Positions 24,335 through 53,715 of a DNA stretch of 64,000 nt are shown piece by piece. A program made the translations under genes and the position numbers. Under the pieces are notes generated by a model. It was not told the DNA's origin, did no database searches, and saw nothing but the letters and a program-made list of their open reading frames with translations. The DNA comes from Trypanosoma brucei (Eukaryota): contig CM000207.1 in NCBI GenBank assembly GCA_000002445.1, forward strand, positions 1,088,001-1,152,000, given 5' to 3'. The number at the start of each line of letters is the position of its first letter. The stretch's first letter is position 1.

Positions 24335-27300
24335 ATGGAGCAGCAGGTCTCTAACCGGGGAAGTAACTCTGACCCCCCAGCGTCTTCTCAGTGCGAGGAA
24401 GAGACCAAACAACATGAAGTCTCGGAAACGACTTTTTGCGGAAGTGAGTTTGCAGAAGGCAGTGGTGGAACTTTGTTACAGACGGTGGCACCCGATGCCC
24501 CCAGTGTGAGGAGTTGTGGCAGCCATCAAGTCCCGAGCTCAAGTAAAGGTGCTCCCTTCGCCTCACGGGCGCAGGCGCTGATGTCAGGCGCTGCCAGCGT
24601 CGTGGCGCCACTTTCAGTTCACTCTGGTAGTCAACACACATCCCGAAAGGGAAACACCCACAACTTAGCGCGACTCGCGGTGAAGCACAATTTATATGCC
24701 GTACAACTGGATGGTGACTCCGGCGGCATTGAAATGCAAGCCGCTAGCCAATATCTCCTCCGGGCGGTAACCACACGAGAGAAGTACAAATCAGTGGATA
24801 AGGGACAGAAGGAGGGAACAGGGCGCTTGGTGCCTCCGGTTGTTTTCTCCTTTGAAACTGGTGTCGCCCAGTTCACGGACCAAAAGACCGAAGTTTTACC
24901 ATGGGAGCAGTTCTACGACGACGTGATAGAGTTGTGTGCCACGATGCAGCATCCAGATTGCCGCCGGGCGTGTTCGCAGCGTCTACAAGTGCTGGAAGAG
25001 AAGTATAACCTGTACAAATTGTGCAGCAGCAACGTTGAGAACCCTGACCACCACCGCCACGATGTTGGTGTATTTTCCGATTGTACAAAAGTTGATAATA
25101 GCGTGTATCTGAGTTGCATGGTGAATTCGGAGTTGCTGCGTGAATACATCCAGGACAAGGTGGAGTATTGTGGATCGGATGAGGTGCGGTATTCGGCGGA
25201 TAAAACTGAGGTGCACACACTGAGTACAACATGCGATCAGCTCGGATTTACGGAGGTTGAGCAGCTAACTATCGAGGGTCTGGGGTTGTCACCACCAAAT
25301 GAAAAGCAACGTTACCATTACGATCCGCTTGATCTTGAACTGAACCGCACTGGACGCAACTGCGCGGAGCTATTGCAACTCTTCCTCACACACAATACTT
25401 TGAATAAGGGGAAATACTTTGCAGAAATTGTGAAACCCACACTGTCCGAGAATGAGCAACGAATGCGAAACCCACAGGCAACTGAATGTATAGTTGAACT
25501 ATGTGGTACTTCTGCCGAAGATTGGGAGCAGCTGGCCGCGTGGGCACAGGAGCATAATCTGCTACGAATGTGGCATAACCGCTGGTTCGTTGCCTTACCC
25601 CGGAGACGGATACGAAGCGATTCAACAAAGGATGCACTTGAGAACCACCAGCAACACTTGGAAAATATTTTCCTACCACTGTTTACAGCAACACTCGCTC
25701 CCGAAGACCCGAAGAACGCTTCTATTGTGGCGCTGCTCCAGAACCTTGGTGGGTTTGTGATTGTGTCCGATGAAGAGGAGCGCAACTCCACTTTCGAGCG
25801 CAAGCTGAGGCGACCCGTTGAGGTGCCATGGAGTGAGAATGTTTGCGATCTCTACTTCGCTTACCATGTATGGGCAAATCTTTGTTCCCTCAACGCTTTG
25901 CGCCGTCGCAAGGGCCTCAATACTTTGCAGCTACGTGCCTTCGCCGGGAATCGTGACGGTCAAATAGATGTATTGGTTTATTCTTACCTACTGTGCGACA
26001 GCCTTGTTAACGGTGTTCTCCTAGAGCATAATCCTGTGCTGCAGTATCTTTATGGTGCCGGAAAGATCGGACTGGTCATGATGCCACTGTGTAACAATGG
26101 GATGGGGCTCCCGTATATGCAGAACCCCTTTCCTGTTTTCTTTCGCCGCGGGTTGCTCGTGACACTGACGACCAACCAACCTTTGTTGTTTCACCATTCT
26201 AAAGAACCTCTCATCGAGGAATACGGCACTGCGAGCAAACTGTTTCAGCTATCTGGCACTGATGCATGTGAGATAGCGTTAAACTCCGTGATTGTGTCGT
26301 CATTTCCCGCCGATGTTAAGGCACTGTGGTTGGGGGATTCATTCCTTCAGGAAGGCATTCAGGGGAACATGCTAGAGTTTAGCAAAGTTCCGACGTGCCG
26401 TCTTGTGTTGCGACAGGAACTGTGGCAAACGGAATTGAACATTATTCATCAGGCCGCGGTGCGAAATACGAGGGGAAAGCGAGGGGCGTTTCCTCTCCCG
26501 ACACTGCTGTCCACCCCTCCCCCTCTCATGGCTTCTGGGAGCCATGCTGGGGATTCGACCGAAGTTGAGCCAAGCGGCGTAACTTTACAACAAGCCGTTA
26601 CAATGATGCAGTCAAGTCAAATGCCGTTCCTCGCTCGCGATCCACATACGGACTTTCCTCGCGTTGTCTTCTTAGGCCCCCTCGAACGTGATCCTTCTGA
26701 TACGCTGGTTGTGACTCTGTTGCATCGTGCGTTACAGCTGCGCTCGCAGTATGTTCGGCAGCACAACATACGTGATGTAGATGGGAGAGTGCTGCGGTCG
26801 GACGATATTGAACATGCATTCCGCCGTGATGATACATTTGATGAGGACGAGTGGATGTTCAAAACCGTCGAAGGTGTTGTTGTGCCACACGAGGTTCATC
26901 AGATTCCCCGTCTCCCAAAAGATATGTTTCACTTTGACGACTTTCGTCAACATGTGCAGGAACTGCGCGCCATGCTAGAGAATGCGCACGTACGCAACTT
27001 CGCGACGCGGCGATTGAATTTGCTTGAGCGCAAGTTTATGTTACACCTTGCGGTTAACCGCAGTCTTGAAGCGGGGACAACGGCCAGCAAGGCTTCTCAG
27101 AATCGTGACTTCTATCAAGCAACAAAAGTGGACAATAATGTTCGTATGGAGTCCGGTATGACTGCTCGGCAGCTGCTGAACTTCATCGTTTCCAAGGCTA
27201 ATAATAATGGTGATGACATTGTGGCCCACCAAGAGGGAAAAGAACCGCAAACGTTGCGGCAACTGCTACAGGAGTTAAATATTTCTCCGAGCACACTAAC

Positions 27301-29407
27301 TGTAGATGACCTCAATGTGCAAGTCGACACAACACTTGGTGTTGGGAGCGCACAATATACACCTGGCGGCCGTGATGTCTTGTGTACACTACTGCTGAAC
27401 ACAGACAACCAAATGAAGGGACGCTACTTCGCTGAGTTGACAAAGCTAACCTTTGAGAACTTCGAGCATGACCGTTTCACCTTCACCGAAAACAGGCTAC
27501 CGATTTATGGCGCGAGCCCCAATGAATGGGGGTTGCTCTCTGATTGGTTCGACACACATGGTATGGCATCAGTACACAACCGATGGATGGTGCAGATCCC
27601 GCGCATTTACGGTTATCTGCGCGAGTGTGGAAAGGTCCAAAGTTTTACTGAGTACATCGAAAACATATTCAAACCACTATGGACTGTTTCACTCCATCCA
27701 AGCAAAGATCCCCGCTTGTTCCACTTCCTTAACCACATCTCTGGCTTCGATTGCGTTGAAGACGAACGAAGACACGACATACCGCTCAACAATGCAACGA
27801 AACCGCCTCATGAGTGGACGACCGAGGAAGAGCCTCCATACAACTACTACATGTATCATGTGTGGGCAAATATTTACTCACTGAACGAGTTTCGTCGACG
27901 CCGGAAGTTCTCGACGTTTACATTTCGACCAAGCTGTGGAGAAACAGGCCCTGTGGAACACCTCATCGGTGGGTTTTTACTTGCCAACGCTATTAATTAT
28001 GGCGTTACTCTCGCTGATGATACCCCACTGCAGTATCTTTTTTACCTCGCCCGCATTGGGGTAACGGTAAGCCCGCTGAGCAACAACACGAAGGTGCTCG
28101 GGTACCTGGACAACCCGTTTCCGACGTTCTTTCGTCGCGGTCTTAATGTTTCCCTCGGCACGGACAGCCCACTTATGTTTCATCACACCCAGGAGCCACT
28201 ACTAGAGGAGTACTCCATTGCCTCAAAGGTGTGGAAGCTTTCGCCCAATGATATGTGTGAGATTGCCCGCAACAGTGTGCTTCTTTCAGGTTTTGATGCT
28301 GCCTTTAAACGTGAGCGACTAGGGGATCTGTTTTTTCTTTCAAGTAGCAGAAGCAACGACGCGTCACACACACACCTATCCGACATCCGTGTCGCGTACC
28401 GTTTCGAGACCTACCACGCAGAGATTGCTTTTCTGGAGATGATCTCCACCCTTAATTTCCCAAAGGCACTTCTTACTCTGAGTGAAGAGAGGGCACTGGA
28501 AGCTGATTTTCTTGAGGCGGTAAAGAAAAAGGAAAAGCAGCTTGGGTGTATCATAGAAGTTAAGACTGAGGAGGAGGACATTAAAAGGTTAGAGCAAAGT
28601 CGTGCCGCTCTACTGCGACAGGTTCGAGAGGCTGAAGATACTGTTGAGGAGTTACGCCGGCAGAACAAACAGCTAACGGAGAAGCTTGCTGAAGAGCGGG
28701 CGAGGGACCAACACGCACAGCAGATGCGTCGCAAGGGACTTAAGGAGCGTGTTGTGGGTATTTCAGATCCGGAGGGGAGACGGCAGACATCGTCGTCAAA
28801 CGCCGATATGTCGAGTGATCACCAGCCCTCCCTCGAAATTTCTGTTTTGGAACAAGTGGCGAAGGAAGAAACCAACGGTGAAGATGCCACAGCTGCTGGA
28901 CAAAGTCAGCATCTAGGGGGTGCGAAAGTGGGGCTGACCGCTTTGTCGCCCACTGCTTTGGAGGACACCTCACCGAGGAGTGCTGGCTTCATCTCTAGTG
29001 GGAATGTAGCTGATTTAGACGACAATTTGGATACTGCTGCCACAACGAGTGCACTAGTTGGTATGCTAGAGAGTATGTGGAAAGAAAAACCTGCTGGGGC
29101 CTCTCACTCCGGCGGGCATACCGTTACGGGCGGAGATGCGAGCAGTACCTTCCCACCAATTAATGTTGATGCGGTTACGCTCAGTGAAAGAAAACCGTCA
29201 GGGGCCAGTGGCAGCACCACTAAGCGGGGACCACCACCACCGAGGCGGACCTCCGCGAATTCTGCCTTTGTATTCCCTAAACCTTCCGGGGAAGGGGGTT
29301 CGCATCGCGCGTCACTTCAGGGGTTTGCTAATGTTCAGCAAGCCGCCCGTGAACAGGAAGCAAAAGAGACGGGGAGTTCGCACCGAAGCAGTGAAAGAGG
29401 AGTTTAG
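24335..29407 (+). CDS. Tandem AMP-deaminase-like protein (two AMPD/adenosine-deaminase-fold domains, both with metal ligands substituted), followed by a C-terminal coiled coil and an S/T/G/P-rich tail
   Basis: Domain 1 (approx aa 240-640): KVDNSVYLSCM, GKYFAEIVKP, NRWFVALPR, ENIFLPLF, LRAFAGNRDG, MMPLCNNGMG, TLTTNQPLLFHHSKEPLIEEYGTASKLFQLSGTDACEIALNSVIVSSF. Domain 2 (approx aa 920-1330): KVDNNVRMESGM, GRYFAELTK, NRWMVQIPR, ENIFKPLW, FRPSCGETGPVEHL, VSPLSNNTKV, SLGTDSPLMFHHTQEPLLEEYSIASKVWKLSPNDMCEIARNSVLLSGF. These align to the canonical AMPD motifs VDTHxH, GKYFA, VRW.VQ.PR, ENIF.PLF, RPHCGEAG, MSPLSNN, SLSTDDPLQFHFTKEPL.EEYS.A…KLS..DMCE.ARNSV. Confidence 0.85.
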   Translation: MEQQVSNRGSNSDPPASSQCEEETKQHEVSETTFCGSEFAEGSGGTLLQTVAPDAPSVRSCGSHQVPSSSKGAPFASRAQALMSGAASVVAPLSVHSGSQHTSRKGNTHNLARLAVKHNLYAVQLDGDSGGIEMQAASQYLLRAVTTREKYKSVDKGQKEGTGRLVPPVVFSFETGVAQFTDQKTEVLPWEQFYDDVIELCATMQHPDCRRACSQRLQVLEEKYNLYKLCSSNVENPDHHRHDVGVFSDCTKVDNSVYLSCMVNSELLREYIQDKVEYCGSDEVRYSADKTEVHTLSTTCDQLGFTEVEQLTIEGLGLSPPNEKQRYHYDPLDLELNRTGRNCAELLQLFLTHNTLNKGKYFAEIVKPTLSENEQRMRNPQATECIVELCGTSAEDWEQLAAWAQEHNLLRMWHNRWFVALPRRRIRSDSTKDALENHQQHLENIFLPLFTATLAPEDPKNASIVALLQNLGGFVIVSDEEERNSTFERKLRRPVEVPWSENVCDLYFAYHVWANLCSLNALRRRKGLNTLQLRAFAGNRDGQIDVLVYSYLLCDSLVNGVLLEHNPVLQYLYGAGKIGLVMMPLCNNGMGLPYMQNPFPVFFRRGLLVTLTTNQPLLFHHSKEPLIEEYGTASKLFQLSGTDACEIALNSVIVSSFPADVKALWLGDSFLQEGIQGNMLEFSKVPTCRLVLRQELWQTELNIIHQAAVRNTRGKRGAFPLPTLLSTPPPLMASGSHAGDSTEVEPSGVTLQQAVTMMQSSQMPFLARDPHTDFPRVVFLGPLERDPSDTLVVTLLHRALQLRSQYVRQHNIRDVDGRVLRSDDIEHAFRRDDTFDEDEWMFKTVEGVVVPHEVHQIPRLPKDMFHFDDFRQHVQELRAMLENAHVRNFATRRLNLLERKFMLHLAVNRSLEAGTTASKASQNRDFYQATKVDNNVRMESGMTARQLLNFIVSKANNNGDDIVAHQEGKEPQTLRQLLQELNISPSTLTVDDLNVQVDTTLGVGSAQYTPGGRDVLCTLLLNTDNQMKGRYFAELTKLTFENFEHDRFTFTENRLPIYGASPNEWGLLSDWFDTHGMASVHNRWMVQIPRIYGYLRECGKVQSFTEYIENIFKPLWTVSLHPSKDPRLFHFLNHISGFDCVEDERRHDIPLNNATKPPHEWTTEEEPPYNYYMYHVWANIYSLNEFRRRRKFSTFTFRPSCGETGPVEHLIGGFLLANAINYGVTLADDTPLQYLFYLARIGVTVSPLSNNTKVLGYLDNPFPTFFRRGLNVSLGTDSPLMFHHTQEPLLEEYSIASKVWKLSPNDMCEIARNSVLLSGFDAAFKRERLGDLFFLSSSRSNDASHTHLSDIRVAYRFETYHAEIAFLEMISTLNFPKALLTLSEERALEADFLEAVKKKEKQLGCIIEVKTEEEDIKRLEQSRAALLRQVREAEDTVEELRRQNKQLTEKLAEERARDQHAQQMRRKGLKERVVGISDPEGRRQTSSSNADMSSDHQPSLEISVLEQVAKEETNGEDATAAGQSQHLGGAKVGLTALSPTALEDTSPRSAGFISSGNVADLDDNLDTAATTSALVGMLESMWKEKPAGASHSGGHTVTGGDASSTFPPINVDAVTLSERKPSGASGSTTKRGPPPPRRTSANSAFVFPKPSGEGGSHRASLQGFANVQQAAREQEAKETGSSHRSSERGV

Positions 29408-30031
29408 CTCAGTAGTAGGGCGTTGGCTGCGTTGGACCCCTACTTTGCTTCACCTATTTTATCCTGTTTGTCTCATGCTGTTCCTATCACGTCCAGGAGC
29501 TTTTACTATTTCAATGTGGCAAAGGGGCGCTTCTGTGGTCGTATTGCCGGCATATGAATGGCGCAGACAGAGAGTCTGCTGTGTAGGTGTGTGAAGAGCA
29601 TTTATTTATGTACAAAGTTTGCAAGGGGGAGGGCGTTTGTGTGAACACTTTTGTTTTGTTTTACACTTTACTCCCTTGCGGTAGAAGCACGGGTCCACGC
29701 CCCCCTGCGTGGTGGTTATGTCAAGATGGTGTACGCACATGAGGCTTAAGTTTTAGTGCATTCTCCTTATGTGGCTCGATGGTTGGCCTGCTTCCATTAC
29801 CGATTTGTTTCAATTTTACTTTCAGCTCTGACAGGAATTAATCTCCCTTTGTAAGTGCTCCAGGAGAGACAACACCGGTACGTGTACCTTAAAATAGGCA
29901 GGCGTATCCCATAGTGCCCTCGTGTCTGAGGCACATTAGCAGTAGTACACTTTGTGAGGATACGACACGGGAGGGGAACAAAGAAAGTACAGAAAGTAGT
30001 TTTAGTAAGTTTAGATACTGGGATCGGGAAG

Positions 30032-31369
30032 ATGCGACGCTCTGCCACCTTCCTGGGGTTGACTGCTCTGCGGAGCGTTGCTGCCACTGGTTGGCGCTAC
30101 CACAAACAAGGGGCACCTGAGCGGGTTTTGCAGTACGAGCGCTACCGAATCCCTTTTGATAGGAGCGGTTCTCAAGCAGTGGTAAAGATGTTGGCGGCCC
30201 CCGTCCACCGACACGACCGGGCCATGATCGGCGGGTACTGTGGGCCGCTTCGACCCACCGCATTTCCGCAGGTTGCGGGTGTTGAGGGTGTTGGAGTTGT
30301 TGAAGAAGTTGGTAAAGGGGCCTCACTGCTGCTTCAGGAAGGCGACCTTGTATGGGTTAATAATCCAACAGTGGGCACATGGGCCACACATGTTGTGACG
30401 GATGTTGAAAATTTGGACGTCGTGCCAAATCGCGCAGATGTTGATATTGAATACCTTGCTTCGCTCTCGCTTTTCCATACGGCGTACCATTTAACGAATA
30501 GTTTCGTGAGTCTGCAACCAAACGACGTAGTACTTCAGACAGGCGCCTCGTCCTCTATCGCTCAAATTTGTCAGGGTTACATCCGTGCCCGTGGTGCAAA
30601 ATTGTTCCAGACAATGCAATTGGGACGCACGGAGCATGCACATCTTTTAGCTTTCTTCAAAATGAGGGGAGCATTTGCCGTCGTGCCGTACAATTACGTG
30701 CGAACTAACTACATGCGTCGGCTTCTTTCTGACGTGCCGCCGCCAAAGCTTTTACTCAACCACACCTGTGGTAACTTCGCTTCCAGTTTAGTTAATCTTC
30801 TCGGTGACAATGGTGTTTGTGTTACATATGGCAATACAGGCGGAAAGCCGCTTCAGATCGCCAATATGGACGTCATTGCACGTGGTATTAAGTTCAAAGG
30901 ATTCTTCCTACCACACTGGATAAAGAGCCACACACGTGAGGCTCGGATGCGCGTTCACCAGAATGTTGTGGAGAGCATGACGATTTCGCAGGGCCACGGT
31001 ATATTTCGGGCGCAGCGCTTCAAAATGGATGGCGACAGCATATTCGCCTTCAGCAACGCATGGGATGCTCCCCTCGGCAGCCGCAAACCCGTTCTGCGCA
31101 TGGTGGGCGAATACGGTGAGTGGCGCCGACCCCGCTCAGACCAAGCCGCATGGAACATTGGTCGTGCGGTATGGGACGATTTACTGCAGCAAATGTGGGA
31201 GAGCGCCGGAACAACTGAAAATCCTCAGTCAATGAAGTACTACACTCCCTTCAACGACATTTATTCGCAATTTCATGACGGGAAGCAATCAAAGGAGATG
31301 GGCCATCGTGAAGTTTTCTTCCGTCGGCCAAACGCCCCACGTCACAATGCGGCAGAGAGCACACATTGA
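30032..31369 (+). CDS. MDR-superfamily oxidoreductase (trans-2-enoyl-CoA reductase / quinone oxidoreductase-like), probably mitochondrial
   Basis: GYCGPLRPTAFPQVAGVEGVGVVEEVGKG…GDLVWV is the GroES-like zinc-ADH N-domain. A Rossmann-like VLQTGASSSIAQICQGYIRARGAK follows. Start placed at ATG 30032 (MRRSATFLGLTALRSVAATGWRY, presequence-like) rather than the ORF-track 29954. Confidence 0.7.
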   Translation: MRRSATFLGLTALRSVAATGWRYHKQGAPERVLQYERYRIPFDRSGSQAVVKMLAAPVHRHDRAMIGGYCGPLRPTAFPQVAGVEGVGVVEEVGKGASLLLQEGDLVWVNNPTVGTWATHVVTDVENLDVVPNRADVDIEYLASLSLFHTAYHLTNSFVSLQPNDVVLQTGASSSIAQICQGYIRARGAKLFQTMQLGRTEHAHLLAFFKMRGAFAVVPYNYVRTNYMRRLLSDVPPPKLLLNHTCGNFASSLVNLLGDNGVCVTYGNTGGKPLQIANMDVIARGIKFKGFFLPHWIKSHTREARMRVHQNVVESMTISQGHGIFRAQRFKMDGDSIFAFSNAWDAPLGSRKPVLRMVGEYGEWRRPRSDQAAWNIGRAVWDDLLQQMWESAGTTENPQSMKYYTPFNDIYSQFHDGKQSKEMGHREVFFRRPNAPRHNAAESTH

Positions 31370-32840: not shown

Positions 32841-33136
32841 GCAAGCGGAGAGGAATGAAGTAACGAAGAAAATAGGGTGTGAGAAAAAAGAGGGGGATGG
32901 TCAGGGTAAGTTGTACTTTGCCGCTCGTTTTTTGTCAATGCCATTGCTGCCTATCGTTATCACTGCCCAAGGTATGAACGGTACATCAACTGTAATGTAT
33001 TTGTGGAACATGCTTAACTTTTTAAGGGCTTACTTACCCATTTGCTCTTTTTCACCGAGCGACGTTGTGCGCCTATACCTTTCCCACCTTGTTTTCCTTC
33101 ATTGTACCAAAATGGCGGTTAGAAGACGCCCCGGTA

Positions 33137-35368
33137 ATGACCCCTCGGCGCGTCGCAAAGCTCGTGCAGTTTTCTGGTTCCTACCTGAATACCGAATGGG
33201 CTCGCAAATTTATCCTCGGTTCCTTGCTGCAGCGCTACAATCCTCAATCCTTGACTACTGTTGGTTCCTCTGCTGCGGGGAATTCCGGTGAGGATGCTTC
33301 TCTTGACAAGGAACTGCTTCACCTCCAGCGCTCACTGAGTGAGGTGTGGTCACTTCCGGCTCAACCGCTTGATGCGGTGAGCGAAGGGAGAATTCTTCGA
33401 TTACTCGCACGCTACGCTACGGGTGAGGGGGTCATGTCGATTGAGGCATTGAATGAACTGAGTCATGTGCTGTCGTGCATTCGTGGTTCCCCGCAACGTG
33501 TTGAAGGCCCGATAGATATGGAAGAGTTGCTGCTGGCAATAGGGTACGCTAAACCGGGCGACAACCTTCGGCGTGTGGCGTTCGCGGGAGAGCTGCAATA
33601 CCCTCCAAGCGCGCTTGCACATATGCGGGCACACCTCAGGGACGACATGGAGCGCGACGGTAGCGACCCATTCGACATTCTCCGTGTTGTCACTCACAAC
33701 CCGGCATATGCAATCGATTCTGCGAGCACGTCGGAGGTTGATGACGCGATAGGAGTGTATAAAGATCCCGTGACAGGTGAGGAGTGCTTTGTGGTGTACG
33801 TTTCCGATGCTACCGTCTACTGCCCGTTCGATAGTCCACTGGAGCAACTCACCGCAAGGCTACTGACAACGACAACATACCTTCCGGAAGGTGTTTTTTT
33901 CATGTTACCGAAGCCGATAGTTGATGCTGCAACCCTACGTGAGGACAGGCCTTGCCGCACGTTTGATATTCGGTTTCAGATTGATGAGGTAACTGGAGAA
34001 CTGAAAAACTATAGCGTTGGTGTCGGTTGGCTCCATAAACTTCGCCGCATCACGTACGACGAGGTACAAGCTCTGTATGATGAGGAGGCACAGGTGGGAA
34101 ATCAGCATCATCACACCGAAAGAGAAAGCACTCAGGCTTCTCCTGCTAAACGCGAAGAGGGAAAGAAAGGTATGGTAGCCTCAGGAGGCACATCATCATG
34201 CCGTCCCTCGTGGATGACTGTGGAGGATGAAAGCATCTTACGCCGCATCTACAGAGCTGCACAGAAGCGATATGAAACCAGGCAGTTGCGAGCGGGAGAC
34301 CGTTTCATCCATGCAGACTTGCCTGAGCCGCTCATCAAAGTGGGTGCTGGGGCACAGGTACTTTCGGTGGAGGACCAAATCATTGGCACTAGGGACGCTC
34401 GACTGGCCGTTGCGGAGATGATGATCGCCGCAAATGAGGTTTGCTCTCGTGTGGCGCAGGAAAATCATCTTTCTATACCATTTCGCGGCACGCGAGAGTT
34501 GTCTTTAGACCATGTTGCAGCGAAGTCGTACAGAGAGCCGCAGGGCGTAGTATCTGTCCAATCTCTCGATCCGCAGTACGTTTTTTTCGCGGAGGCGATG
34601 CAACGATCCATTCGGCAGTTGAGCGGAGTCACACGAGCCGTCTACTTCCACACGCCCATTTACCACGCAGGTCTCGACACACATAACTATACGCACAGCA
34701 CTAGTCCATTGAGGCGCTATGCAGATATGTTGGTGCATCATCAATTGAAGGTATGGCTCTGGCGCACTTCGCACTGCAGTAGTGGAGGCGGTGCGTTACA
34801 TTCTGCACAAAAGAGCTCCCCTGTGCTGATTGAGCAACCAATAGCGGAGCATACTATGGCCACACTTTGTTCAATGATCAGTAGTAAGCAGGAGCAGTCA
34901 AGTATTTTGCAGGAAAGCAGTCAACGCTACTGGTTGTTGAAACACATTAAACAAAACATCCTTACGAAAAGTCCCCATCACCGCTTTATTTGTCTTGTTG
35001 GTGACACACGAAGTGTAAAGTGTGCACCTGAGTATGCGCGATTCGTCGTCGAATGCAGTCACGACTCACCATCACAACCTGATGGTGGCGTGCACCGAAC
35101 TGTTCCATGGGCAGGAAGGTGGAAGCAGCGACATCACGAGTATCTTTACGTTTCGGATATCTATATTACAGAATTGCAGTTCGCACATGTGGTTCTCCAC
35201 AGTCTACCCGATGTTGTAGTTGGTGCAGTGGTTGAATGTGAGGTACGCGAGGTGCACCCAACCCAAGGTTATCTCTCACTAGCGATTGTGAAAGTTTGGA
35301 GTGGTGGAGACGAACGACGGTTCGAGCCACTTTGGAAAAAGTGCCTTCTTCCATCTCTGGACTCGTGA
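33137..35368 (+). CDS. RNB-domain 3'-5' exoribonuclease (RNase II/R family), possibly the mitochondrial degradosome DSS1-like enzyme
   Basis: YTHSTSPLRRYADMLVHHQLK is the RNB signature (Y.HFTSPIRRY.D..VHR.L). Upstream AYAIDSASTSEVDDAIGV resembles the RNB catalytic D-x-D..D-D region. Start taken at ATG 33137 (MTPRRVAKLV…, basic presequence-like), which gives 743 aa; the ORF-track start 33065 lies in a pyrimidine tract. Confidence 0.75.
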   Translation: MTPRRVAKLVQFSGSYLNTEWARKFILGSLLQRYNPQSLTTVGSSAAGNSGEDASLDKELLHLQRSLSEVWSLPAQPLDAVSEGRILRLLARYATGEGVMSIEALNELSHVLSCIRGSPQRVEGPIDMEELLLAIGYAKPGDNLRRVAFAGELQYPPSALAHMRAHLRDDMERDGSDPFDILRVVTHNPAYAIDSASTSEVDDAIGVYKDPVTGEECFVVYVSDATVYCPFDSPLEQLTARLLTTTTYLPEGVFFMLPKPIVDAATLREDRPCRTFDIRFQIDEVTGELKNYSVGVGWLHKLRRITYDEVQALYDEEAQVGNQHHHTERESTQASPAKREEGKKGMVASGGTSSCRPSWMTVEDESILRRIYRAAQKRYETRQLRAGDRFIHADLPEPLIKVGAGAQVLSVEDQIIGTRDARLAVAEMMIAANEVCSRVAQENHLSIPFRGTRELSLDHVAAKSYREPQGVVSVQSLDPQYVFFAEAMQRSIRQLSGVTRAVYFHTPIYHAGLDTHNYTHSTSPLRRYADMLVHHQLKVWLWRTSHCSSGGGALHSAQKSSPVLIEQPIAEHTMATLCSMISSKQEQSSILQESSQRYWLLKHIKQNILTKSPHHRFICLVGDTRSVKCAPEYARFVVECSHDSPSQPDGGVHRTVPWAGRWKQRHHEYLYVSDIYITELQFAHVVLHSLPDVVVGAVVECEVREVHPTQGYLSLAIVKVWSGGDERRFEPLWKKCLLPSLDS

Positions 35369-36813: not shown

Positions 36814-37365
36814 ATGAAAAACAAAGCGGCATCTCGTCGCGACGAAAAACTCATCAAAGGGACTAATATCATTGTTAAGAATGTTTCCCTTATTGACAAA
36901 CATAGGAACGATCCTCAGGCACTGCTTCACTCCATAGAAGCTGATGACGCCGTTGAGTTGAGGTGGTGGAGAAACGCACTTCGCCCGGAAGCTAATCTCA
37001 TTGAACCCGCTGTTGCGTACTTGCAGGGTATTAAAGTTATTCGACCTGCTACGAACTTTAATACATTTGACATCAAAAAGGCTCGTCTTCGCCGATTAGA
37101 AAAGCAGGAAATTGAGAGAAAGAAATGTCTTGAGAGGCGTAAAAGAGATGTCGCTCCGACGGCTGCCATGAAGGCATCTGCCAATCCGTACCGGGTCCCG
37201 CGTTCCGGTGGATACATAAAACAAAAGGACGACCGCATCATTCAGCGGGGTGAAAAGACCAAAAAAGCAGCCAAGAAAGATATCAAAGAGAGTGGTGGAA
37301 AGACTCAACGTCATAAAAGTAACGGCGAGAAGGGGAAGTTGCAAAAGATAGGCAAAGGTTTGTAA
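36814..37365 (+). CDS. Small lysine/arginine-rich protein (183 aa), likely nucleic-acid-binding or nucleolar
   Basis: In-frame ATG 36814 (MKNKAASRRDEK) lies after the pyrimidine tract and a (TA)n run. pI clearly basic: KKARLRRLEKQEIERKKCLERRKR…KKAAKKDIKE. Confidence 0.45.
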   Translation: MKNKAASRRDEKLIKGTNIIVKNVSLIDKHRNDPQALLHSIEADDAVELRWWRNALRPEANLIEPAVAYLQGIKVIRPATNFNTFDIKKARLRRLEKQEIERKKCLERRKRDVAPTAAMKASANPYRVPRSGGYIKQKDDRIIQRGEKTKKAAKKDIKESGGKTQRHKSNGEKGKLQKIGKGL

Positions 37366-37680: not shown

Positions 37681-37740
37681 CACCTCTTTGTTCTTTTTAT
37701 CCACTCTTTTGTTGTTGTTGTTTTTTTTTTTGAACTTTTG
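37681..37740 (+). promoter_or_regulatory. Polypyrimidine tract / trans-splice signal
   Basis: cacctctttgttctttttatccactcttttgttgttgttgttttttttttt. Confidence 0.45.
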
Positions 37741-37798
37741 AAGGCGATGATTTGCGTGTTGCTAAGTTTGCTCTTTCATTTCCCTCTTTTTCCCTTTA

Positions 37799-38941
37799 GT
37801 GAGCAGGTTCGTTGTGAGTACACAAACTAGTAGGCGAAGAATGCGATCCGGTCGCAAACTCGGTTGTTTTACTAATCGCCTTCGTCTTCCTTTTTTCAGC
37901 CCATGCTCACAGATAACAGCGCTGACAGCGTCACATCGTTGCAAGTCTTATGTACTTAAGTTCTTGCGAGGTCAGTTGCCAGAAGACCTGAAAGATGTCA
38001 ATGGCGCCCTCGGATGTCTTTACGGCACGCTTCCTGATGTGGATGAGTTCGGACAGTTTGTAATCTCCCCTGATGTTGTAAACAGCTTCCATCAGTTTGG
38101 TTATGTGAAAATGCCAATACCGGTGCTCGATCATCAGCAGATTGATAAACTGGCGGACGAGGTGAACGAGTTGGCCAACAATGTGGAGCACCACCCCAAG
38201 ACGGAGAGATTGTATGCGACTTCCCTAGCGGATTTAACTGGAGGGCCATTATTTTTTTGCCAGGGTCAGTGGCGTGCAGCGTGGGGAATGCATGACCTCA
38301 TTTACCTTCCCACTATTACCGTAGCTGCTTCACAGATCCTCAACAACTCGCTCGTTCGATTGTGGTACGATGAGGTTTTTATGAAGGCGGCGAGAACGGG
38401 GCCATGTGTTCCTTGGCAGCAAAATTATGCGCGTTGGCAACATACAAAACCAGTCAACCACGTCACTGTCATGATTGCGCTCGACACAATGAACAAAGAT
38501 CGTGGGGCTCCCTGCCTTGTGCCTGGTAGTCACCGCTGGAGGGAGGGCGGTTTACTTCCACCCGTCTCATACGACCCAACAAAAGATGAAGCGCACCAAC
38601 TGAACACAATATGGGAAATCATTAATGAAGAAGAGGGTGAAATGCTCATGGACACACCACCCGTTACGGTGGATCTTCGTCGTGGTGAAGCTCTTCTCAT
38701 TCACCCACTGACGCTCTTCGCAACGCATGGTAATCGCTCATTGGATGCTGTGCGTTGCTGCTTTATTCATTACATGGGTGAGAAAACATACGCGGTCCAA
38801 AATGGGCCGCTTCTTCCACATACGACTAAATTCCAGGCGGATGCCATGATTCAGGGCCCATTTTATCCAGTTGTGTTTGATCCGGCAATGACTGAGGAAT
38901 TAACCATGCTTCCCACAGCGCCATCCGAAGAGGAGGCGTAA
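37799..38941 (+). CDS. Phytanoyl-CoA dioxygenase (PhyH)-family 2OG/Fe(II) oxygenase-like protein with a substituted His-x-Asp motif
   Basis: VTVMIALDTMNKDRGAPCLVPGSHRW and GEALLIHPLTLFATHGNRS align to human PHYH [27 protein letters not shown] and GDTVFFHPLLIHGSGQN. The position of PHYH HPLHQDLHYF reads VPWQQNYARW here, so H-x-D becomes Q-x-N. Confidence 0.6.
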   Translation: MSRFVVSTQTSRRRMRSGRKLGCFTNRLRLPFFSPCSQITALTASHRCKSYVLKFLRGQLPEDLKDVNGALGCLYGTLPDVDEFGQFVISPDVVNSFHQFGYVKMPIPVLDHQQIDKLADEVNELANNVEHHPKTERLYATSLADLTGGPLFFCQGQWRAAWGMHDLIYLPTITVAASQILNNSLVRLWYDEVFMKAARTGPCVPWQQNYARWQHTKPVNHVTVMIALDTMNKDRGAPCLVPGSHRWREGGLLPPVSYDPTKDEAHQLNTIWEIINEEEGEMLMDTPPVTVDLRRGEALLIHPLTLFATHGNRSLDAVRCCFIHYMGEKTYAVQNGPLLPHTTKFQADAMIQGPFYPVVFDPAMTEELTMLPTAPSEEEA

Positions 38942-40034
38942 CGTTTGGGGGTTCCAAATGGCCAGTTATGAGTTTTACTTTTTGTTTTTTCCCCCCGGCC
39001 ATGTGTTGTGTTTTGCCGCGATGGAGCGGCAGCGGAGTGGTCTTAGCGAAACTTGTCACCATCATTGAGGACCTCAGGTTATTAATACCAAATGCATGTT
39101 GGCTAACGGTACCGCTTTAGGCTTGTGCGCAGTCATCACAAATCCTTTCCCCGCTTTACGGAAACGTGCATGAACTCTGATACCTTTAGCTAACGGGAAT
39201 GGAGTATGCATATAGGGAAACCATCGTGCGGCATGTTGCACACAGCCAGCCGTTTACGTGTATTTACCCTTCACTTTACCCTGTTGCAACCTCTCCGCGC
39301 ATTTTGTGAAGAGCGTAAAGGGTGGTTAGTTTTGTGTGTGAGAAGATGAAATATATGCTGCAGCGCTGGCGCCGCAGTTGCTGAATGAATGTATCATGTT
39401 GGATTTGATTTGTTGTTATGTTATGTTTGTTTGTTTGCTTCTCTTACCCTTCACGTTACCCCCTTTTAAGCCACGTAGCACACAACACCAACACGTGAGT
39501 CCAACTCAGGAAGAGGGAAAGTTAAGAATGTGTAATACGAGTTGCATCGCCTTTCACCAAAACGCTGGTCCAATGCGGGGACGTGTTAAGTCGCGATTGT
39601 TGTCACAAACATGTTCAGATTAGCGGGGACGAACTGTGAAGGGTGACTCAGTACAGAGATAACTGCTGTTGACAACATAATGGGAGTGACGTGTGTCCCT
39701 GAAAAGCACCGCATTATGGTACGGGCGAGGAATTGCACATTCTCACCGTTACTGGCAGACGGTTTTGCCATCATCTGGTAAGCCTTCCAAGTGTCCGTGT
39801 GAGCTTATGCCGCTGACCAGTTGCAGAGAAGTTTAACAAAACAATTGGGTCTTTTCGGTTGCGGCAGCACCATCAACGGTAAAGGAAAGAAAGGCACGTA
39901 TGGACGTGGTGTTAAGCGTAAATACCAGCACGGAAAATGTGCGCATATGCAAGCGCCAGGTTCTCTCTTTTTCCCCTTCTTCCATTTGCACGCATGGGTG
40001 CCGACAGGATGGTAAATTGAAGACTTTCATAATA

Positions 40035-40077
40035 TTGTTGTTGTTGTTGTTGTTGTTGTTTTTGGGGGGGGGGGGGG
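40035..40077. repeat. (TTG)8 microsatellite, then T5, then poly-G(14)
   Basis: ttgttgttgttgttgttgttgtttttgggggggggggggg, read directly. Confidence 0.9.
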
Positions 40078-40489
40078 ACGTTAGAAAAAAATCCCCGGTC
40101 GAAAAATGGGACTTTGTGCCGTCCTGAGGGTGAAAGAGTTCAAAACTTGTTTAACAAAGAAAATTGAGTTGGGGCATTGTAATGAAGTGGTGATACAAGC
40201 AGGCAGACTTTGGATAAAAGATGTTACTGGTGTGAGGGTAAGGACGCTGGTGGCGTGGGAAACTGAATTACTGAAAGGCAACGGCGAGTAAAATACAGGC
40301 GAGAGAAGGAGAGTGTCCTGAGCTGTGGTTCTACGATAAAGTAAACATTGTGTAGCAGAGGGAATGTTACCATCCTGTAATATTTTGAGTGCATTGCGAC
40401 CATATGTCTTAATGCAGTGCATGTTGTGTTTGTGCAAAACTTCCCGTCGTCACAGCACACCGTCACCAACTAATTTAGTAAATAGAAAT

Positions 40490-41609
40490 ATGAGGAGGAG
40501 GGGGAAATGTGGCGGTGAAAGGTTGGAGATTTTGCTCGTAGTTTCGATGTTATTGTTGGTGACGTGTTTAAATCGTTACGGTGTTATGGGTCGCGTCTGG
40601 TTTAAGGGTGGGGAGAAAAATTTAACGGCGGTTGGTGAAGACGAGTATCTAAAGTTTGTGCCAAACGCAACGGCAAATATGTGGAAATAGAGGAATTACT
40701 TTGTTGTTGCCGGTATACAGTCTGTGGATAATGTGGAGCGGTACAGGCGTAGGTTTCTACAGCGAGAGAGACGTGTTGGAAATACAGTGGTGTGGCCGCA
40801 GAGAGAAATGATTTCATTGGAGACTTCCTTCCCTTATATTTACTCTCCCCTCACCAACAAAATGATTACAGGTTCTCAAACTTCTCGAAGTTGGAGGCAT
40901 TAAGTTTTCAGGGCATTGTTGTACTGCCAACACGTGATGTGTACCCGGGGACGAGGAAGCAGATCGGTGATTATTCGAGTTGGGGGCGGAAAGTGGAGGT
41001 GATTATGAGTAATAAAACATATTTGTGGTCCAAATTTTCGTTAGAATTCTTCATCCCCACACCGTACATAATGAAAGGTGATGATGACGCTTTCATTAGG
41101 GTGACACACCACCTTTCTAATTTACGGATGATGCCACGGAAAGGTTTAAATATGGGAAAGTGCAGTGAAGCCAGTGGTGGAATGTCTGAAGATAAACCTG
41201 TTTCATTTATCGCGGGTTACTGCAACACGCTATCGAGAGATGTTGCACAGGCAGTAGTGAGCTATAAGCCCCCTTGGAACGCCTGGTTAACACACACTAC
41301 TTTTTCTGGAATTTCAATACGTTTTACGAGCCGGCGATGTTTAACGAAGATGCCATGGTCAGAACGGTACACACGGAGAAGGTGAACTATACAAGACTGG
41401 TGGCAATTGACATGAGAGAATGTCACTGTGCTGGACACTTCAGGTCCCATGAGGTAGATCTGATATGGGGCAAAGTTATCGTCTTGCACCACGTAAGAGA
41501 AGAGGTTTATGATCAGTTAAAGGAAGCGCTCCCTGAAAGTTGCATCTCGCCTCGTCCAGTGGACCTCATGTGGATAACGGACAGTTTTGCTGCTGCGAGC
41601 TGCGAATAA
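40490..41609 (+). pseudogene. Beta-1,3-glycosyltransferase-family (trypanosomatid UDP-Gal/GlcNAc-dependent GT) pseudogene: type II signal anchor plus K-x-DDD motif, disrupted by an in-frame stop and at least two frameshifts
   Basis: Frame 2: MRRRGKCGGERLEILLVVSMLLLVTCLNRY (short cytoplasmic tail plus TM), then a TAG stop at 40688-40690, then SVDNVERYRRRFLQRE. Frame 1 from about 40770: TCWKYSGVAAE…VVLPTRDVYPG…IMKGDDDAFIRVTHHL, which matches the beta-3-GalT K.DDD.F motif. Frame 3 from 41274: NTHYFFWNF…EKVNYTRLVAIDMRE…. Confidence 0.6.
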
Positions 41610-42727
41610 TTTGAGCCCCACCGCCTAGTGATTTCGCGCGCGAGCGGCCTTACAAAATGTTGGAGTGGCAACACAGCGGAAGGTGCGGCGACTGTTTCCC
41701 TTTATAACCGAGAAACAATCACAGGTGTATGTTATTCCGAATCCGCTCTGGAGCTAAAAGCTGTAGAAGCATTAACGAACCGTGGTGGGAATGTGAAGGG
41801 TGCGTTACGCATCTGAAATGATCCCAGCTTTCTAGTTTCTATGGGGTCCTTGGCAGCGGGCAGGTGGTGTTTTCGTGACTGCATTCGCTTTGCTGGGGTA
41901 TATTATTACGGAGCGCCCACGCAGCCTAAACGTTGAAGCCCGCATTGTGCGTTGCTGCACGGGACGCATCGTGGTGGACAGTTTTTGCAGGTTTGTGGTA
42001 CCCGGGGTTAAGGAGGGATCACATTTACGGCACTGTGCTTTGCACTTTCGCCTTCAGGATACTTTAAGAAGGGCCTGTTGTAAGAAAAAATGTTCCTATC
42101 CGCCGTGTCACTCGCACACGCGCTGGCGATGACACAATTTATCAGACTCGGGGTGGATGAGCTGGATTGTCGTGCCTCCACAGCCCCCAATGGTTTGCGG
42201 ACGGCTGCGAGGGAACACCTCATTACCTTACTTTTCTGTAGGATTCAAAGAGCTGTTGATTACGGGACCTATCCAATAACTGCTGTTTGCCCGAAAGTTA
42301 CCGAACGTCTGCAAGCAGACGCGCTTATGCTGATGTCCCTGGATGCACGGCCCTGCCATTTTAACTTTCCAGGTGTGCCATCCACTTTGTGGTCTTTCTG
42401 TGCGATGCACCGGTTTGCGCGTCCTTTGCAGGAGAGTTGTGCATTCCCAGCTCTCTCATTCCGTTATGGCCTCATCGGTGACGAATATAATTTGTACCGG
42501 AAATGGTAGGGGTCCGTTGTGGTGCACAGAAGTTTGATAAATTTTTTGCGATGTTCTTTTTTTTTTTCATTGTTAAGTGAGCATTGCAGGCATCGATTAA
42601 CTTCATTACCTTTAAAACGAAGGAACTTGTATTGTTTTCTGAGTGGAAACTGTTTGACATGCTGCATAGCGCTGCCCATGCACTTTACTTGTCTAAGGCA
42701 TATTAGGACTCGTGACGGCAGCTTGCC

Positions 42728-45102: not shown

Positions 45103-46584
45103 TCATAACAGTAAAAATAACGCCAGTGGCGTTTGGAGGTTGTTCACACGGCTTCGGATAGCTCGTCTTCGCGTCGCGGCCACGCATGCATCTCCATTCC
45201 ACTCACATCCCATTTCCGCTTTTAGGCCGGCACATGTTTGCTCCCGCTTGTAATCGTTGCATTCAAGTAAAGGGGAACTGTCCCCCCCGTCTCCTTCGTC
45301 GTTTTTTACTGCGGCACCAACGACGGACTCCGATATGCCTTCTCTATTACCGTTGCTTTGTTCGAGTCTGGGTGAGCCCGGCCATTTATTTCTACCCTCC
45401 GCACCTCTGCTTCCTGAGTGAGGGCTGCCACCCCCCCTGCCGGGTCTGATTTTTGTGTGTTTCGTGTTTAAGGCCATTATTTCGTCTTCTAACTCACTTA
45501 ACCTCGCGTCGATGGCGCTTAGTTGGTCTATAGCATCGGCTGCCGCCTTCATTTTCTCCAGCCACGGTAGGGTCGGATTATTTCGCTTGACGTTGCTTAC
45601 ACTGTATTGCACGCAGCGTCCCTGCCCGGTTTTGATGATTCCAGTACAACCTGTGGCCAAATTACCCTCAAACTTGCCTAGCACTGTCAAATCCATGCCC
45701 CTTGTACTCGAGGGCCGAAGCCGCTTGAGAAGCAGATTCATTGCGTCCGAAAGACTTTTCCTCGAAAGCTCGGCATTACTGCCAATTTTCTCGCATTGGT
45801 GTTTGAGATATCCCCATCTTTCTTCTCCAGCCTGACTGGGTATCCACGTGTCGCTATTGCCCCCTTTTTCGCATTCCGCGCAGCAACCCTGGTCGCTTTC
45901 AACGGCACTTCCCGATGCACCACATAGACACAATAAGTCAATACTCAATGCCAAACCAGCCAAACTTCCTGCAAATATCCCTCGGCCGCAAACATCCTTG
46001 CGACCGTATGTTCCCCTCATTACCTCCCCATTTTGTTGTCCGGACCCATAGAGTGCCTCTATCAGATTTTTTTCTATTGATGTCTCCTTCAATATTCTCC
46101 ATAATCCATCATTATCTTTCATGCAATCCTCGGCACGTTCTGCGGCATTTGCTACCTTTCTCTTATCTTCTTTACTCAAGGCACTCCCGGTCCATACCGC
46201 ATATTTGTCCTTTTCAGGACCCCCAAGCTTGCTCCTTGCTCCTGTCCAAAATTTCCGGTGCCCCTCATTTGTTTCGTGAGAATGTTTTCTGTCGTCCGCT
46301 ATTTCTTCCCAATCTTTAGTTGCTCTCTCCAAATCAGAAAAACTCTGATACTCTACGGCCAAGCTTATAGCTCCAATGTTTGCTGCTGTGTCTTCGACTC
46401 GCGCAAGAAGTGCCGCGTGGTCTTCGGAGTTGCTCGCCAAATTAATTAAACCACACAACGCCCTAAAGTCGCCCTCATTTTCTGCACCCTTTGCAACTAG
46501 TGCCGCGCGCGGAATCAAAGGCAGCGTTACTATCGACACAAAAATAGCCCACCTCCCGATCAACATGCGCACTTTTTCAACCAC
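45103..46584 (-). CDS. Variant surface glycoprotein (VSG)-family gene, 493 aa
   Basis: N-terminal signal peptide (MLIGRWAIFVSIVTLPLIPRAALVA). VSG-type N-terminal motif ENEGDFRALCGLINLA. Internal DLLCLC motif. Four-Cys C-terminal module (CNDYKREQTCAGLKAEMGCEWNGDAC) and a hydrophobic C-terminus (TPLALFLLL*). Sits in an AT-rich context unlike the upstream core. Confidence 0.7.
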   Translation of the reverse strand: MVEKVRMLIGRWAIFVSIVTLPLIPRAALVAKGAENEGDFRALCGLINLASNSEDHAALLARVEDTAANIGAISLAVEYQSFSDLERATKDWEEIADDRKHSHETNEGHRKFWTGARSKLGGPEKDKYAVWTGSALSKEDKRKVANAAERAEDCMKDNDGLWRILKETSIEKNLIEALYGSGQQNGEVMRGTYGRKDVCGRGIFAGSLAGLALSIDLLCLCGASGSAVESDQGCCAECEKGGNSDTWIPSQAGEERWGYLKHQCEKIGSNAELSRKSLSDAMNLLLKRLRPSSTRGMDLTVLGKFEGNLATGCTGIIKTGQGRCVQYSVSNVKRNNPTLPWLEKMKAAADAIDQLSAIDARLSELEDEIMALNTKHTKIRPGRGGGSPHSGSRGAEGRNKWPGSPRLEQSNGNREGISESVVGAAVKNDEGDGGDSSPLLECNDYKREQTCAGLKAEMGCEWNGDACVAATRRRAIRSRVNNLQTPLALFLLL

Positions 46585-48964: not shown

Positions 48965-50110
48965 TTATATCAATAGCAACAAATACACCAACAGAGGTGA
49001 AATGATTTGAGTTTCATTTTTTGGTCGAAGTGGCTTTTGTGATTGTCGTGACGATTCTGTAGTGTTTGTTTCTCTTGAACTAAACGGATCAGTGTCCGTA
49101 GTAGTTTGCGTATTTGTATTTGCATTTGTACCTGATGTTACGGATGCCTCGCTCTCTGCTGCTGTTTGAGGGTGTTGTGGGTGTGGCTGAGCTGGGAGTG
49201 GTTTATTTTTTTCTTCCACATTTTGCTCCGGGGGTTGCACAACAGGTTGTGAAACCCTAGGTTGTTGGTGCGTTTTCCCTCCTTCTGGATTATTTTCTTT
49301 CGATACTGGCGGCCCCTCATTCTTTCTTGCCTCGTTTTGAGGGTTGGCCAGTTTTTCGATAAGTTTTTCCAGTCGTGTAAGCCACTCGACGTTCAGCCTT
49401 CCCGTTTCCTCACCTCCCAGTTTGTACATAACACAAGGGGCGTCCCTCAGATTATCTGAAGCTCCGCAGGATTGAGTGATTGGTGGACTTCCGTGTCCAA
49501 AGCGCTTTGTTTCGCTGTTTCCCGTTCCTCTTTCCCTTTCCTTTAGTTTTGTTGAAAGATTCTCCTTCATTGTTTTCAAAGTTTTGGCATCAGGTCTCGC
49601 AGCGTAAATTGCTGTGGAACATTTTTCCATAACGCTTTTCCAATGCTGTTCTGCTTGTGTTCCGTTGCTCCAGCTTTATTCACCATTTTGCCATATGTTG
49701 CTTTCATAGCACAGATTGACCATTTCGCCTTTACCATTTTGTGGCTTGCACAAACACAGAAGATCTACTGCCAACGCTTTACCTGCAAAAACAACTTCAC
49801 TCGACGTCACTGCATCTACGTAACCGCAGTCATTATAGCGTCGATCTTTTCCATTCCAATTAAGGGAGCCATCACTTCCATCTCCGTACAATATTGTGTT
49901 TATGGTAGTGTTATATTCGTTTTCATTGTCGCCTACTTCATCCTCGTTTTGTTTAACCAACTCTCGTATTCCCAGTGTTAAATTTAAAAAACTGCATAGT
50001 GTGTCAAATTCTTCTTTATTCTTTACGGAGCCGTCTGGGGATGCCTGACAACTCACTTCTTTTATCACCAAAACCAGGCATATCAAAAACCTAACTGAGT
50101 ATTTCCACAT
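48965..50110 (-). pseudogene. VSG-superfamily paralog split by a frameshift (N-terminal ORF 49676-50110, C-terminal ORF 48965-49630) with a P/Q/T-rich mucin-like stalk and a hydrophobic C-terminus
   Basis: N-terminal part has a signal peptide (MWKYSVRFLICLVLVIKEVSC), NKEEFDTLCSFLNL and ALAVDLLCLC. C-terminal part is …QPPEQNVEEKNKPLPAQPHPQHPQTAAESE…TNANTNTQTTTDTD…IISPLLVYLLLLI*. The two halves lie in different frames and overlap by about 45 nt. Confidence 0.6.
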
Positions 50111-52296: not shown

Positions 52297-53715
52297 CTAA
52301 AAGATAAGAATAAGAGATAAGAATAATAACAATATAAACCCCCACGTTTCCATATTCAAATGAGTAAGTCCATCATTATTTACCTCAGTATTATCACCTT
52401 CGCTGTCACCCTTTACTCGGCTACTTTTCCATAGCTCTGCATCACCACCTAGTTTCACCTCAAGAAATATTTCCTCGGCCTCGTGTTGATACTCTTCCAA
52501 CTCATGAAGATGACTGTCAGCTTCTTTTGAATATTTATCCATTTCTTGCAGTTGCTCGGTAGCGTTAGTAAGACGATTGTACCATGGAATTCCACCATTT
52601 TCAAGTGTGTACTTGTAACTGACACATGTGAATCCAGCAGTATGACCCGTGCATGTCCGATTTTCGTTTTTATCAGTTCTCACATAACCAAAAATACCCT
52701 TCACCTGATATTTATCCTGTTCCAAATTCACTAAGGCATCAAACTGAGCTAATGCACTTTTCAAAGTCTTTACATTCGATGCAACGTTTTTGTACACACA
52801 AGCTTTACTAATCACATCCCATGCCTCAGTGTAATTGTATGTTATGTTGTCTGGGCTGCAGGGGCTGCTATTGGCCTCACAGTAATTTGCCATCATTGTC
52901 CAACTTCCATTTTTTGGTCTTCTTATTTCATCTTTACAAGGACAATTGAACCCATTATAAACACTATCACTATATTTGCCCTTACCGCTCTCTTCTTTTT
53001 TTTTATCTTCATTATCTTCATTATCTTCTTCCTCTTTCTCGTCTCTTTTCTGCCTCATATCTTCAGTCACATTTATAGCCTCTCCCACACATAGACAGAA
53101 AAAGTCATTGATTAGTGTCTTTCCAACCAGCTTGTCTCCATAAGAACCGCAACTCGTGCCTGCATTATCAATACTATTGAACAGCAGTGACTTGTTTCCC
53201 CTCATGGCTTTCTCTAGAGTTTTATTCTCATTTCGTGCCACATCCACAGCGTCTCCATACACAGCTTTCAACATATTGTCTTCGGCAGAACGACTTGCAT
53301 TTAACGCTTTTGTCCTATTCACTTCTATTTCTTCCTTCAGCTTTTTCGCCTTTTCAAGCAGTTGTATCATCAACTGATATGCTGTCGTGCTGTTAGATGA
53401 ATTGCTCGAGCCTTTATTACTTCCAGCGGCCCCCACCACACTGACCATTTCCTCCAACTCATTCAGAATATTAGCTTCTTTCTCACGGTTCTTGAAAGAG
53501 GGTTGTGGTGCTTCTGCCTGCGTAATTCGGTAAATTTTGCACAGTGTCTCGAACTCACCGACGTTATGGTATTTGTAACTATCGTCGATGTAATCCGTAA
53601 TGCTTCCCCAGTCAACCATATCAGGCCGCCATTTGTACGACCCCATATCTCCCTGAAAGGAAGGAGATAAAACAGCTGCAAAAAGCCCAACAGCGAACAC
53701 TATTTCACACCTCAT
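52297..53715 (-). CDS. VSG-superfamily surface glycoprotein, 472 aa
   Basis: Signal peptide MRCEIVFAVGLFAAVLSPSF. NVGEFETLCKIYRI. INDFFCLC motif. Many N-glycosylation sequons. Acidic low-complexity insert (EKEEEDNEDNEDKKKEE). Hydrophobic C-terminus WGFILLLFLSLILIF*. Confidence 0.7.
   Translation of the reverse strand: MRCEIVFAVGLFAAVLSPSFQGDMGSYKWRPDMVDWGSITDYIDDSYKYHNVGEFETLCKIYRITQAEAPQPSFKNREKEANILNELEEMVSVVGAAGSNKGSSNSSNSTTAYQLMIQLLEKAKKLKEEIEVNRTKALNASRSAEDNMLKAVYGDAVDVARNENKTLEKAMRGNKSLLFNSIDNAGTSCGSYGDKLVGKTLINDFFCLCVGEAINVTEDMRQKRDEKEEEDNEDNEDKKKEESGKGKYSDSVYNGFNCPCKDEIRRPKNGSWTMMANYCEANSSPCSPDNITYNYTEAWDVISKACVYKNVASNVKTLKSALAQFDALVNLEQDKYQVKGIFGYVRTDKNENRTCTGHTAGFTCVSYKYTLENGGIPWYNRLTNATEQLQEMDKYSKEADSHLHELEEYQHEAEEIFLEVKLGGDAELWKSSRVKGDSEGDNTEVNNDGLTHLNMETWGFILLLFLSLILIF

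Follow-up and report, generated by a model that had tools for sequence, protein, structure and literature searches.

RESC14 of Trypanosoma brucei: very probably a pseudoenzyme of the phytanoyl-CoA dioxygenase fold with lost iron and 2-oxoglutarate sites

Main finding

The gene at 37841..38941 on the + strand of the window (the whole 64-kb stretch of DNA that we analysed) is T. brucei RESC14 itself, a protein already published and structurally solved. Our data on its gene identity, fold family, residue map and relaxed conservation make it very probable that RESC14 is a pseudoenzyme scaffold, which keeps the PhyH fold of an oxygenase and has lost the sites for iron and 2-oxoglutarate (2OG). That it is a pseudoenzyme is already known: this was published in 2018, and was followed by a structure in 2023 and a review in 2026. 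What we add is a firmer residue map (F293 rather than H296 at the distal iron ligand and V304 rather than R305 at the 2OG anchor) together with a metagenomic relative, P0035, that has kept part of the site; otherwise the analysis brings no new biology. Seen this way, RESC14 illustrates in textbook fashion how the RNA-editing machinery of trypanosomes has taken up an enzyme fold as one of its structural parts.

Results

A phmmer search against PDB sequences matched the protein at 100% identity over 366/366 residues to chain 14 of 8FNC, 8FNF, 8FNI and 8FNK, which is deposited as 'Phytanoyl-CoA dioxygenase family protein / RNA-editing substrate-binding complex protein 14 (RESC14)' (MRB7260, Tb927.9.7260). 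By this chain match, RESC14 is a structural subunit in the cryo-EM structures of RESC-B and RESC-C. The sequence-only reading had assigned the gene to an ORF at 37799-38941; its reading frame on the + strand holds, its start does not, as it lies 14 codons too early. The ORF in question (37799..38941, 380 aa) is opened by GTG under bacterial start codons, while the first in-frame ATG is found at 37841 and leaves a coding sequence of 366 aa plus the stop codon (37841..38941). Because the solved protein opens with MRSGRK, we place the RESC14 start at this ATG and reject the GTG at 37799 as an artefact of bacterial-code ORF calling. The in-frame extension 5' of the true ATG (37799..37840, + strand) is probably part of the 5' UTR, given that the solved protein and all orthologues begin at or after MRSGRK. 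In trypanosome mRNA processing a pyrimidine-rich tract with an AG is expected ahead of the coding region, and such a tract, ending in AG, can be read directly 5' of the coding sequence (37690..37798, + strand) and may serve as a candidate trans-splicing signal. Residue numbers used here are those of the 366-aa protein; numbering by the 380-aa ORF is obtained by adding 14.

Homology to the PhyH family, which had been proposed from the letters of the DNA and an alignment to human PHYH, lies far above chance. The Pfam profile PhyH (PF05721) scores 115.2 bits (gathering threshold 22; E 6.9e-33) and is covered from position 12 to 209 of 213, so that the double-stranded beta-helix domain is encoded by 38060..38746 (+ strand; residues 88-316 in the 380-aa ORF). 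From NCBIfam we obtained a sub-threshold match to ectoine hydroxylase only (13 bits versus a cut-off of 336.5). An AF2 model of RESC14, built on the orthologue alignment, has an overall pLDDT of 75.9, and from residue 150 to 350 most values exceed 85. Confidence is low for the first 57 residues, and the conserved N-terminal extension is disordered in this model of the protein alone. When the model was compared with solved structures using Foldseek, the best matches were 8fnc_14 (RESC-C) and 8fni_14 (RESC-B) with E 1e-54, and next after these RESC chains came SnoK, SnoN, H11, GriE, MysH, PHYHD1, SyrB2 and EctD (E ~1e-14 to 1e-11). The model thus has the double-stranded beta-helix fold of solved PhyH-family structures.

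At the place of the H-x-D/E motif, which supplies two of the iron ligands and is absent from RESC14, the protein carries a degenerate W192-Q193-Q194-N195 (38414..38425, + strand), as judged from its translation, from several alignments and from orthologue counts. In a joint MAFFT alignment, whose human PHYH sequence is 100% identical to 2a1x_A, PHYH residues H175, Q176 and D177 fall on Q193, Q194 and N195. An exhaustive profile search across 1.84 billion representatives yielded 1214 relatives, of which the nearest full-length ones outside the RESC14 clade are 23-31% identical and include one from a choanoflagellate and one named an ectoine hydroxylase-related dioxygenase by its source. Active relatives read WHQDYSYW at the exact place of WQQNYARW in RESC14, and an hhalign comparison of the RESC14-family profile with a profile of 22 active relatives (probability 100, E 1.7e-59) runs gap-free across the motif and puts the iron triad plus the 2OG Arg at Q193, N195, F293 and V304. 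We consider the H-x-D register firm because the W...W frame common to the active relatives aligns without a gap. Hence, the initial proposal that Q-x-N stands in for H-x-D is borne out, with WQQN lying column for column beneath WHQD of the relatives and LHQD of human PHYH.

The third iron ligand, the distal His, is likewise absent from RESC14. Its homologous position is F293 (38717..38719, + strand), on which four alignments (HMMER with SnoK, HMMER with MysH, profile-profile by hhalign, and MAFFT with PHYH, where it is H264) agree; the strings that place it are TVH-MAEANTS in SnoK, TIH-HSVTNIS in MysH, TVH-GSxxNxS in the active relatives and LIH264-GSGQNKT in PHYH. The nearby H296-G-N298-R299-S300 (38726..38740, + strand) had been read as the second histidine region. 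Here, N-R-S is in register with the N-x-S/T of the family (N298 and S300), N298 being opposite the family-wide Asn (PHYH N269), and this part of the claim stands. H296, on the other hand, faces G267 of PHYH, and we rejected it as a kept distal His since the canonical His falls on F293, three residues upstream. By taking H296 for a conserved distal ligand, the sequence-only reading underestimated the loss. The 2OG C5-carboxylate Arg, which lies eleven residues past the distal His, is absent as well: in V304-R305 (38750..38755, + strand), V304 occupies the place of this Arg (PHYH R275) and R305 stands opposite PHYH K276. In the PHYH structure (McDonough et al., 2005) H175, D177, H264 and R275 are reportedly the Fe and 2OG residues, and numbering derived from our MAFFT alignment reproduces all four. 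By these alignments, RESC14 has lost the complete facial triad as well as the residue that anchors the cosubstrate (Q193, N195, F293, V304).

A large protein search returned 34 RESC14 orthologues with 53-100% identity, all with a PhyH domain; among the named sources are Trypanosoma, Leishmania, Phytomonas, Strigomonas and Angomonas. We infer that a EukProt entry tagged 'Tbor' comes from Trypanoplasma borreli, and read in this way the orthologues are conserved across Kinetoplastea including bodonids. Whether the kinetoplastid orthologues share Q-x-N, a point raised together with the original proposal, can be answered in the affirmative for most: position 193 (PHYH H175) is Q in 27 of the 34 sequences, and position 195 (PHYH D177) is N in 29. 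The remainder differ, with M in three, L in two and R in two at the former position and H in four and S in one at the latter. Position 293 (PHYH H264) is Y in 18, F in nine and H in five, and at 304, homologous to the 2OG anchor R275, we count A13, S10, C6 and V3. Among the 29 full-length orthologues, columns 193, 195, 293 and 304 are more variable than 58%, 35%, 71% and 82%, respectively, of the domain columns. In the 22 active relatives, no variation is seen in the two His columns or the Arg column and next to none in the Asp column. Variable ligand columns within a fold that is kept are what would be expected once selection no longer acts on the binding of metal and cosubstrate.

None of the 29 full-length orthologues departs from W192, Q194, W199, H296, N298 or R299. 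H296 is present in 32 of the 34 sequences, the remaining two being gapped at this position, and its conservation is specific to RESC14 although it is not a canonical metal ligand. Conservation of H296, N298 and R299 could reflect a subunit contact or a residual function of the pocket; with all six invariant residues near the old pocket, some such function could persist.

Discussion

Loss of the iron ligands and of the 2OG Arg makes it very probable that RESC14 acts as a pseudoenzyme. In our reading, its ancestor was a PhyH-type Fe(II)/2-oxoglutarate oxygenase, whose double-stranded beta-helix fold has been kept while in T. brucei the iron ligands (H to Q193, D to N195 and H to F293) and the 2OG Arg (to V304) have gone. 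What is left would serve as a rigid protein-protein interaction module, which by published RNAi, pulldown and cryo-EM work sits between GRBC, the module that binds gRNA, and REMC, the mediator module. There, according to the literature, RESC14 is required for bringing GRBC, RESC8 and gRNA onto mRNA-bound REMC and, together with RESC10, stands in for RESC1/2 next to RESC5/6 when the complex is competent for editing. A non-catalytic binding protein, one of two options left by the sequence-only reading, is supported by the missing Fe/2OG residues, by the role as a structural subunit of RESC and by the published pseudoenzyme status. Complete absence of catalysis is probable on the grounds of sequence; what still speaks against full inactivity is that five of the 34 orthologues have a His at 293 and four of the 34 a His at 195.

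Localisation, essentiality, organizer role and placement within the complex are taken from the literature. McAdams et al. (2018) noted that MRB7260 is without most of the Fe/2OG residues and inferred catalytic inactivity; they found a mitochondrial protein, conserved among trypanosomatids, that is essential to both growth and editing. In their hands, folded recombinant MRB7260 did not bind RNA in vitro, nor was RNA binding seen by in vivo UV crosslinking; weak two-hybrid contacts were detected with GAP1, MRB8620 and MRB8170, and upon MRB7260 knockdown GRBC dissociates from REMC. Many RESC14 interactions are RNA-enhanced or RNA-inhibited (McAdams et al., 2018). Mitochondrial localisation and a need for U-indel editing are reported both there and by Wackowski et al. 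(2024). According to the latter work and the 2026 review, RESC14 is an organizer that brings RESC6, RESC2 and RESC8 into a large RNA-containing complex, and the review explicitly calls it a phytanoyl-CoA dioxygenase pseudoenzyme. In the cryo-EM work of Liu et al. (2023), as cited in these two sources, RESC8, RESC10 and RESC14 are placed between GRBC and REMC, and RESC10 and RESC14 are described as roughly replacing RESC1/2 beside RESC5/6.

Could RESC14 be a catalyst after all? An ordinary oxygenase would result if our register were wrong and a nearby His/Asp pair in ARWQHTKPVNH formed the real metal site. This finds some backing in the HMMER alignment with SnoK, where the HxD region is shifted by one residue so that W192 comes to lie opposite the SnoK His. 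The shift, however, is compensated by a gap directly after the motif, whereas the W...W frame of close active relatives aligns without gaps and fixes the register. Moreover, H201 aligns with a variable position and H207 with a conserved His among relatives whose HxD is canonical, and neither residue is followed by an acidic residue two positions on. The shift onto these histidines, held out at the start as what might overturn the Q-x-N assignment, therefore fails; at the level of sequence, this possibility is already refuted, and we give it next to no chance of being right. A different way to retain activity would be an atypical site, made for example from Q193, N195 and H296 or holding a different metal, that modifies RNA or a RESC protein. 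Such a site might profit from the intact fold and from H296, invariant in full-length orthologues and just three residues away from the canonical ligand position, as well as from the invariant N298 and R299. Yet a conserved catalytic site would not tolerate variation of the kind observed, with L, M or R at 193 in seven of 34 orthologues, H or S at 195 in five of 34, Y, F or H at 293 and A, S, C or V at 304. Together with a literature that treats RESC14 as a pseudoenzyme, this renders an atypical catalyst very unlikely to our minds, and the 'unusual chemistry' initially entertained alongside a non-catalytic role is disfavoured by the variable ligand positions and the loss of the 2OG Arg.

A milder departure from the pseudoenzyme scaffold would be a protein that is non-catalytic but whose vestigial pocket can still hold a small molecule (2OG, succinate, a nucleotide) or the end of an RNA, so that RESC14 acts as a sensor or RNA contact. 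Around the former active site, W192, Q194, W199, H288, H296, N298, R299 and H310 are all invariant, and the response of many RESC14 interactions to RNA would fit such a role. Arguing against it, the published assays with recombinant protein and with UV crosslinking in vivo did not detect RNA binding, the 2OG-anchoring Arg is lost, and with orthologues that are 53-83% identical overall, conservation of the pocket is not distinctive. We thus regard this option as improbable, and it is likewise improbable that the pocket lined by H296, N298, R299, W192, Q194 and W199 in particular binds a metabolite (2OG, succinate), a nucleotide or an RNA 3' end. If it did, ligand binding in the old pocket would link RESC remodelling to the metabolic state of the mitochondrion or to the handing over of gRNA.

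A scaffold role for RESC14 invites comparison with its enzymatic kin. The double-stranded beta-helix is common to RESC14, PHYH (2A1X) and the PF05721 members SnoK/SnoN, MysH, proline hydroxylase H11, GriE, PHYHD1 and EctD, as are the family motifs W-x-Q in the HxD strand, PGSH, HP, N-x-S/T and a C-terminal GP..FP. Against this shared background, H175, D177, H264 and R275 of PHYH contrast with Q193, N195, F293 and V304 of RESC14, and while members of the PhyH family are free enzymes, RESC14 is a subunit of an RNA-protein complex. Within that complex it is not alone: RESC5, which has a DDAH fold, and RESC1/2 (GAP1/2), which have an RNA triphosphatase fold, are like RESC14 enzyme folds employed as RESC subunits in non-catalytic roles, structural or RNA-binding (2026 review). 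Their folds are unrelated to that of RESC14, however, and RESC1/2 and RESC5 contact gRNA, whereas RESC14 does not bind RNA in published assays.

Active relatives follow the pattern WHQDYSYW...HGS..N.S..RR. A metagenomic protein (P0035), 39% identical to RESC14 (E 1e-73), reads W-H-Q-N at the motif, where the Asp alone is changed; both His positions, first and distal, are kept along with the RR pair. It also shares the N-terminal R-G-x-x-P-x-D-L-K-D motif of RESC14. Its coding regions lie on metagenome contigs of 1.2-1.9 kb (L001, 60-1040; L002, 64-1044), and the ORF adjoining it has no Pfam match. P0035 may represent a halfway state between active PhyH enzymes and the RESC14 scaffold. It is one of several intermediate matches of the profile search (E 1e-73 to 1e-40), and the loss may have been stepwise, with D to N first, H to Q next, the distal H to Y/F after that and R to A/S last.

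Genomic neighbourhood

RESC14 is the last gene in a run of + strand core genes that extends from 0.6 to 38.9 kb of the window. Upstream in the same run lie a 1690-aa AMP deaminase (24335-29407, + strand; PF19326, E 4e-264) and, at 29954-31369 (+ strand), an ORF of 471 aa that bears an ADH_N GroES-like domain; both seem to be housekeeping genes of the usual kind. Two genes upstream of RESC14, a 767-aa ORF (33065-35368, + strand) has an RNB exoribonuclease domain (E 4e-56), and it may be the mitochondrial 3'-5' exoribonuclease DSS1 of T. brucei (Tb927.9.7210), whose locus is at about this place. If so, two genes for mitochondrial RNA processing would be near neighbours. Directly upstream of RESC14, an unnamed ORF (36814-37362, + strand) gave no Pfam match. 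In a EukProt gene model (P0020), a homologue of this ORF is fused to a RESC14 orthologue; the ORF and the N-terminal part of P0020 share 49% identity (E 1e-45). Such a fusion is probably a mis-merged gene model, and it implies that the gene order is kept in another kinetoplastid.

Downstream of RESC14, about 6 kb are without an ORF of more than 200 aa. They are followed by - strand ORFs with VSG_B domains, one of full length (45103-46584) and two with partial matches (48965-49630 and 52297-53715). GC content falls from ~0.50 to ~0.40, and GC skew changes sign at ~44 kb. The boundary, at some 39-45 kb, resembles the margin of a VSG array; the 64-kb window contains no tRNA genes. Between RESC14 and the VSG genes, where ORFs are scarce, positions 40001-42000 show an unusually strong GC skew of +0.24, and a (TTG)10 microsatellite is located at 40035-40064.
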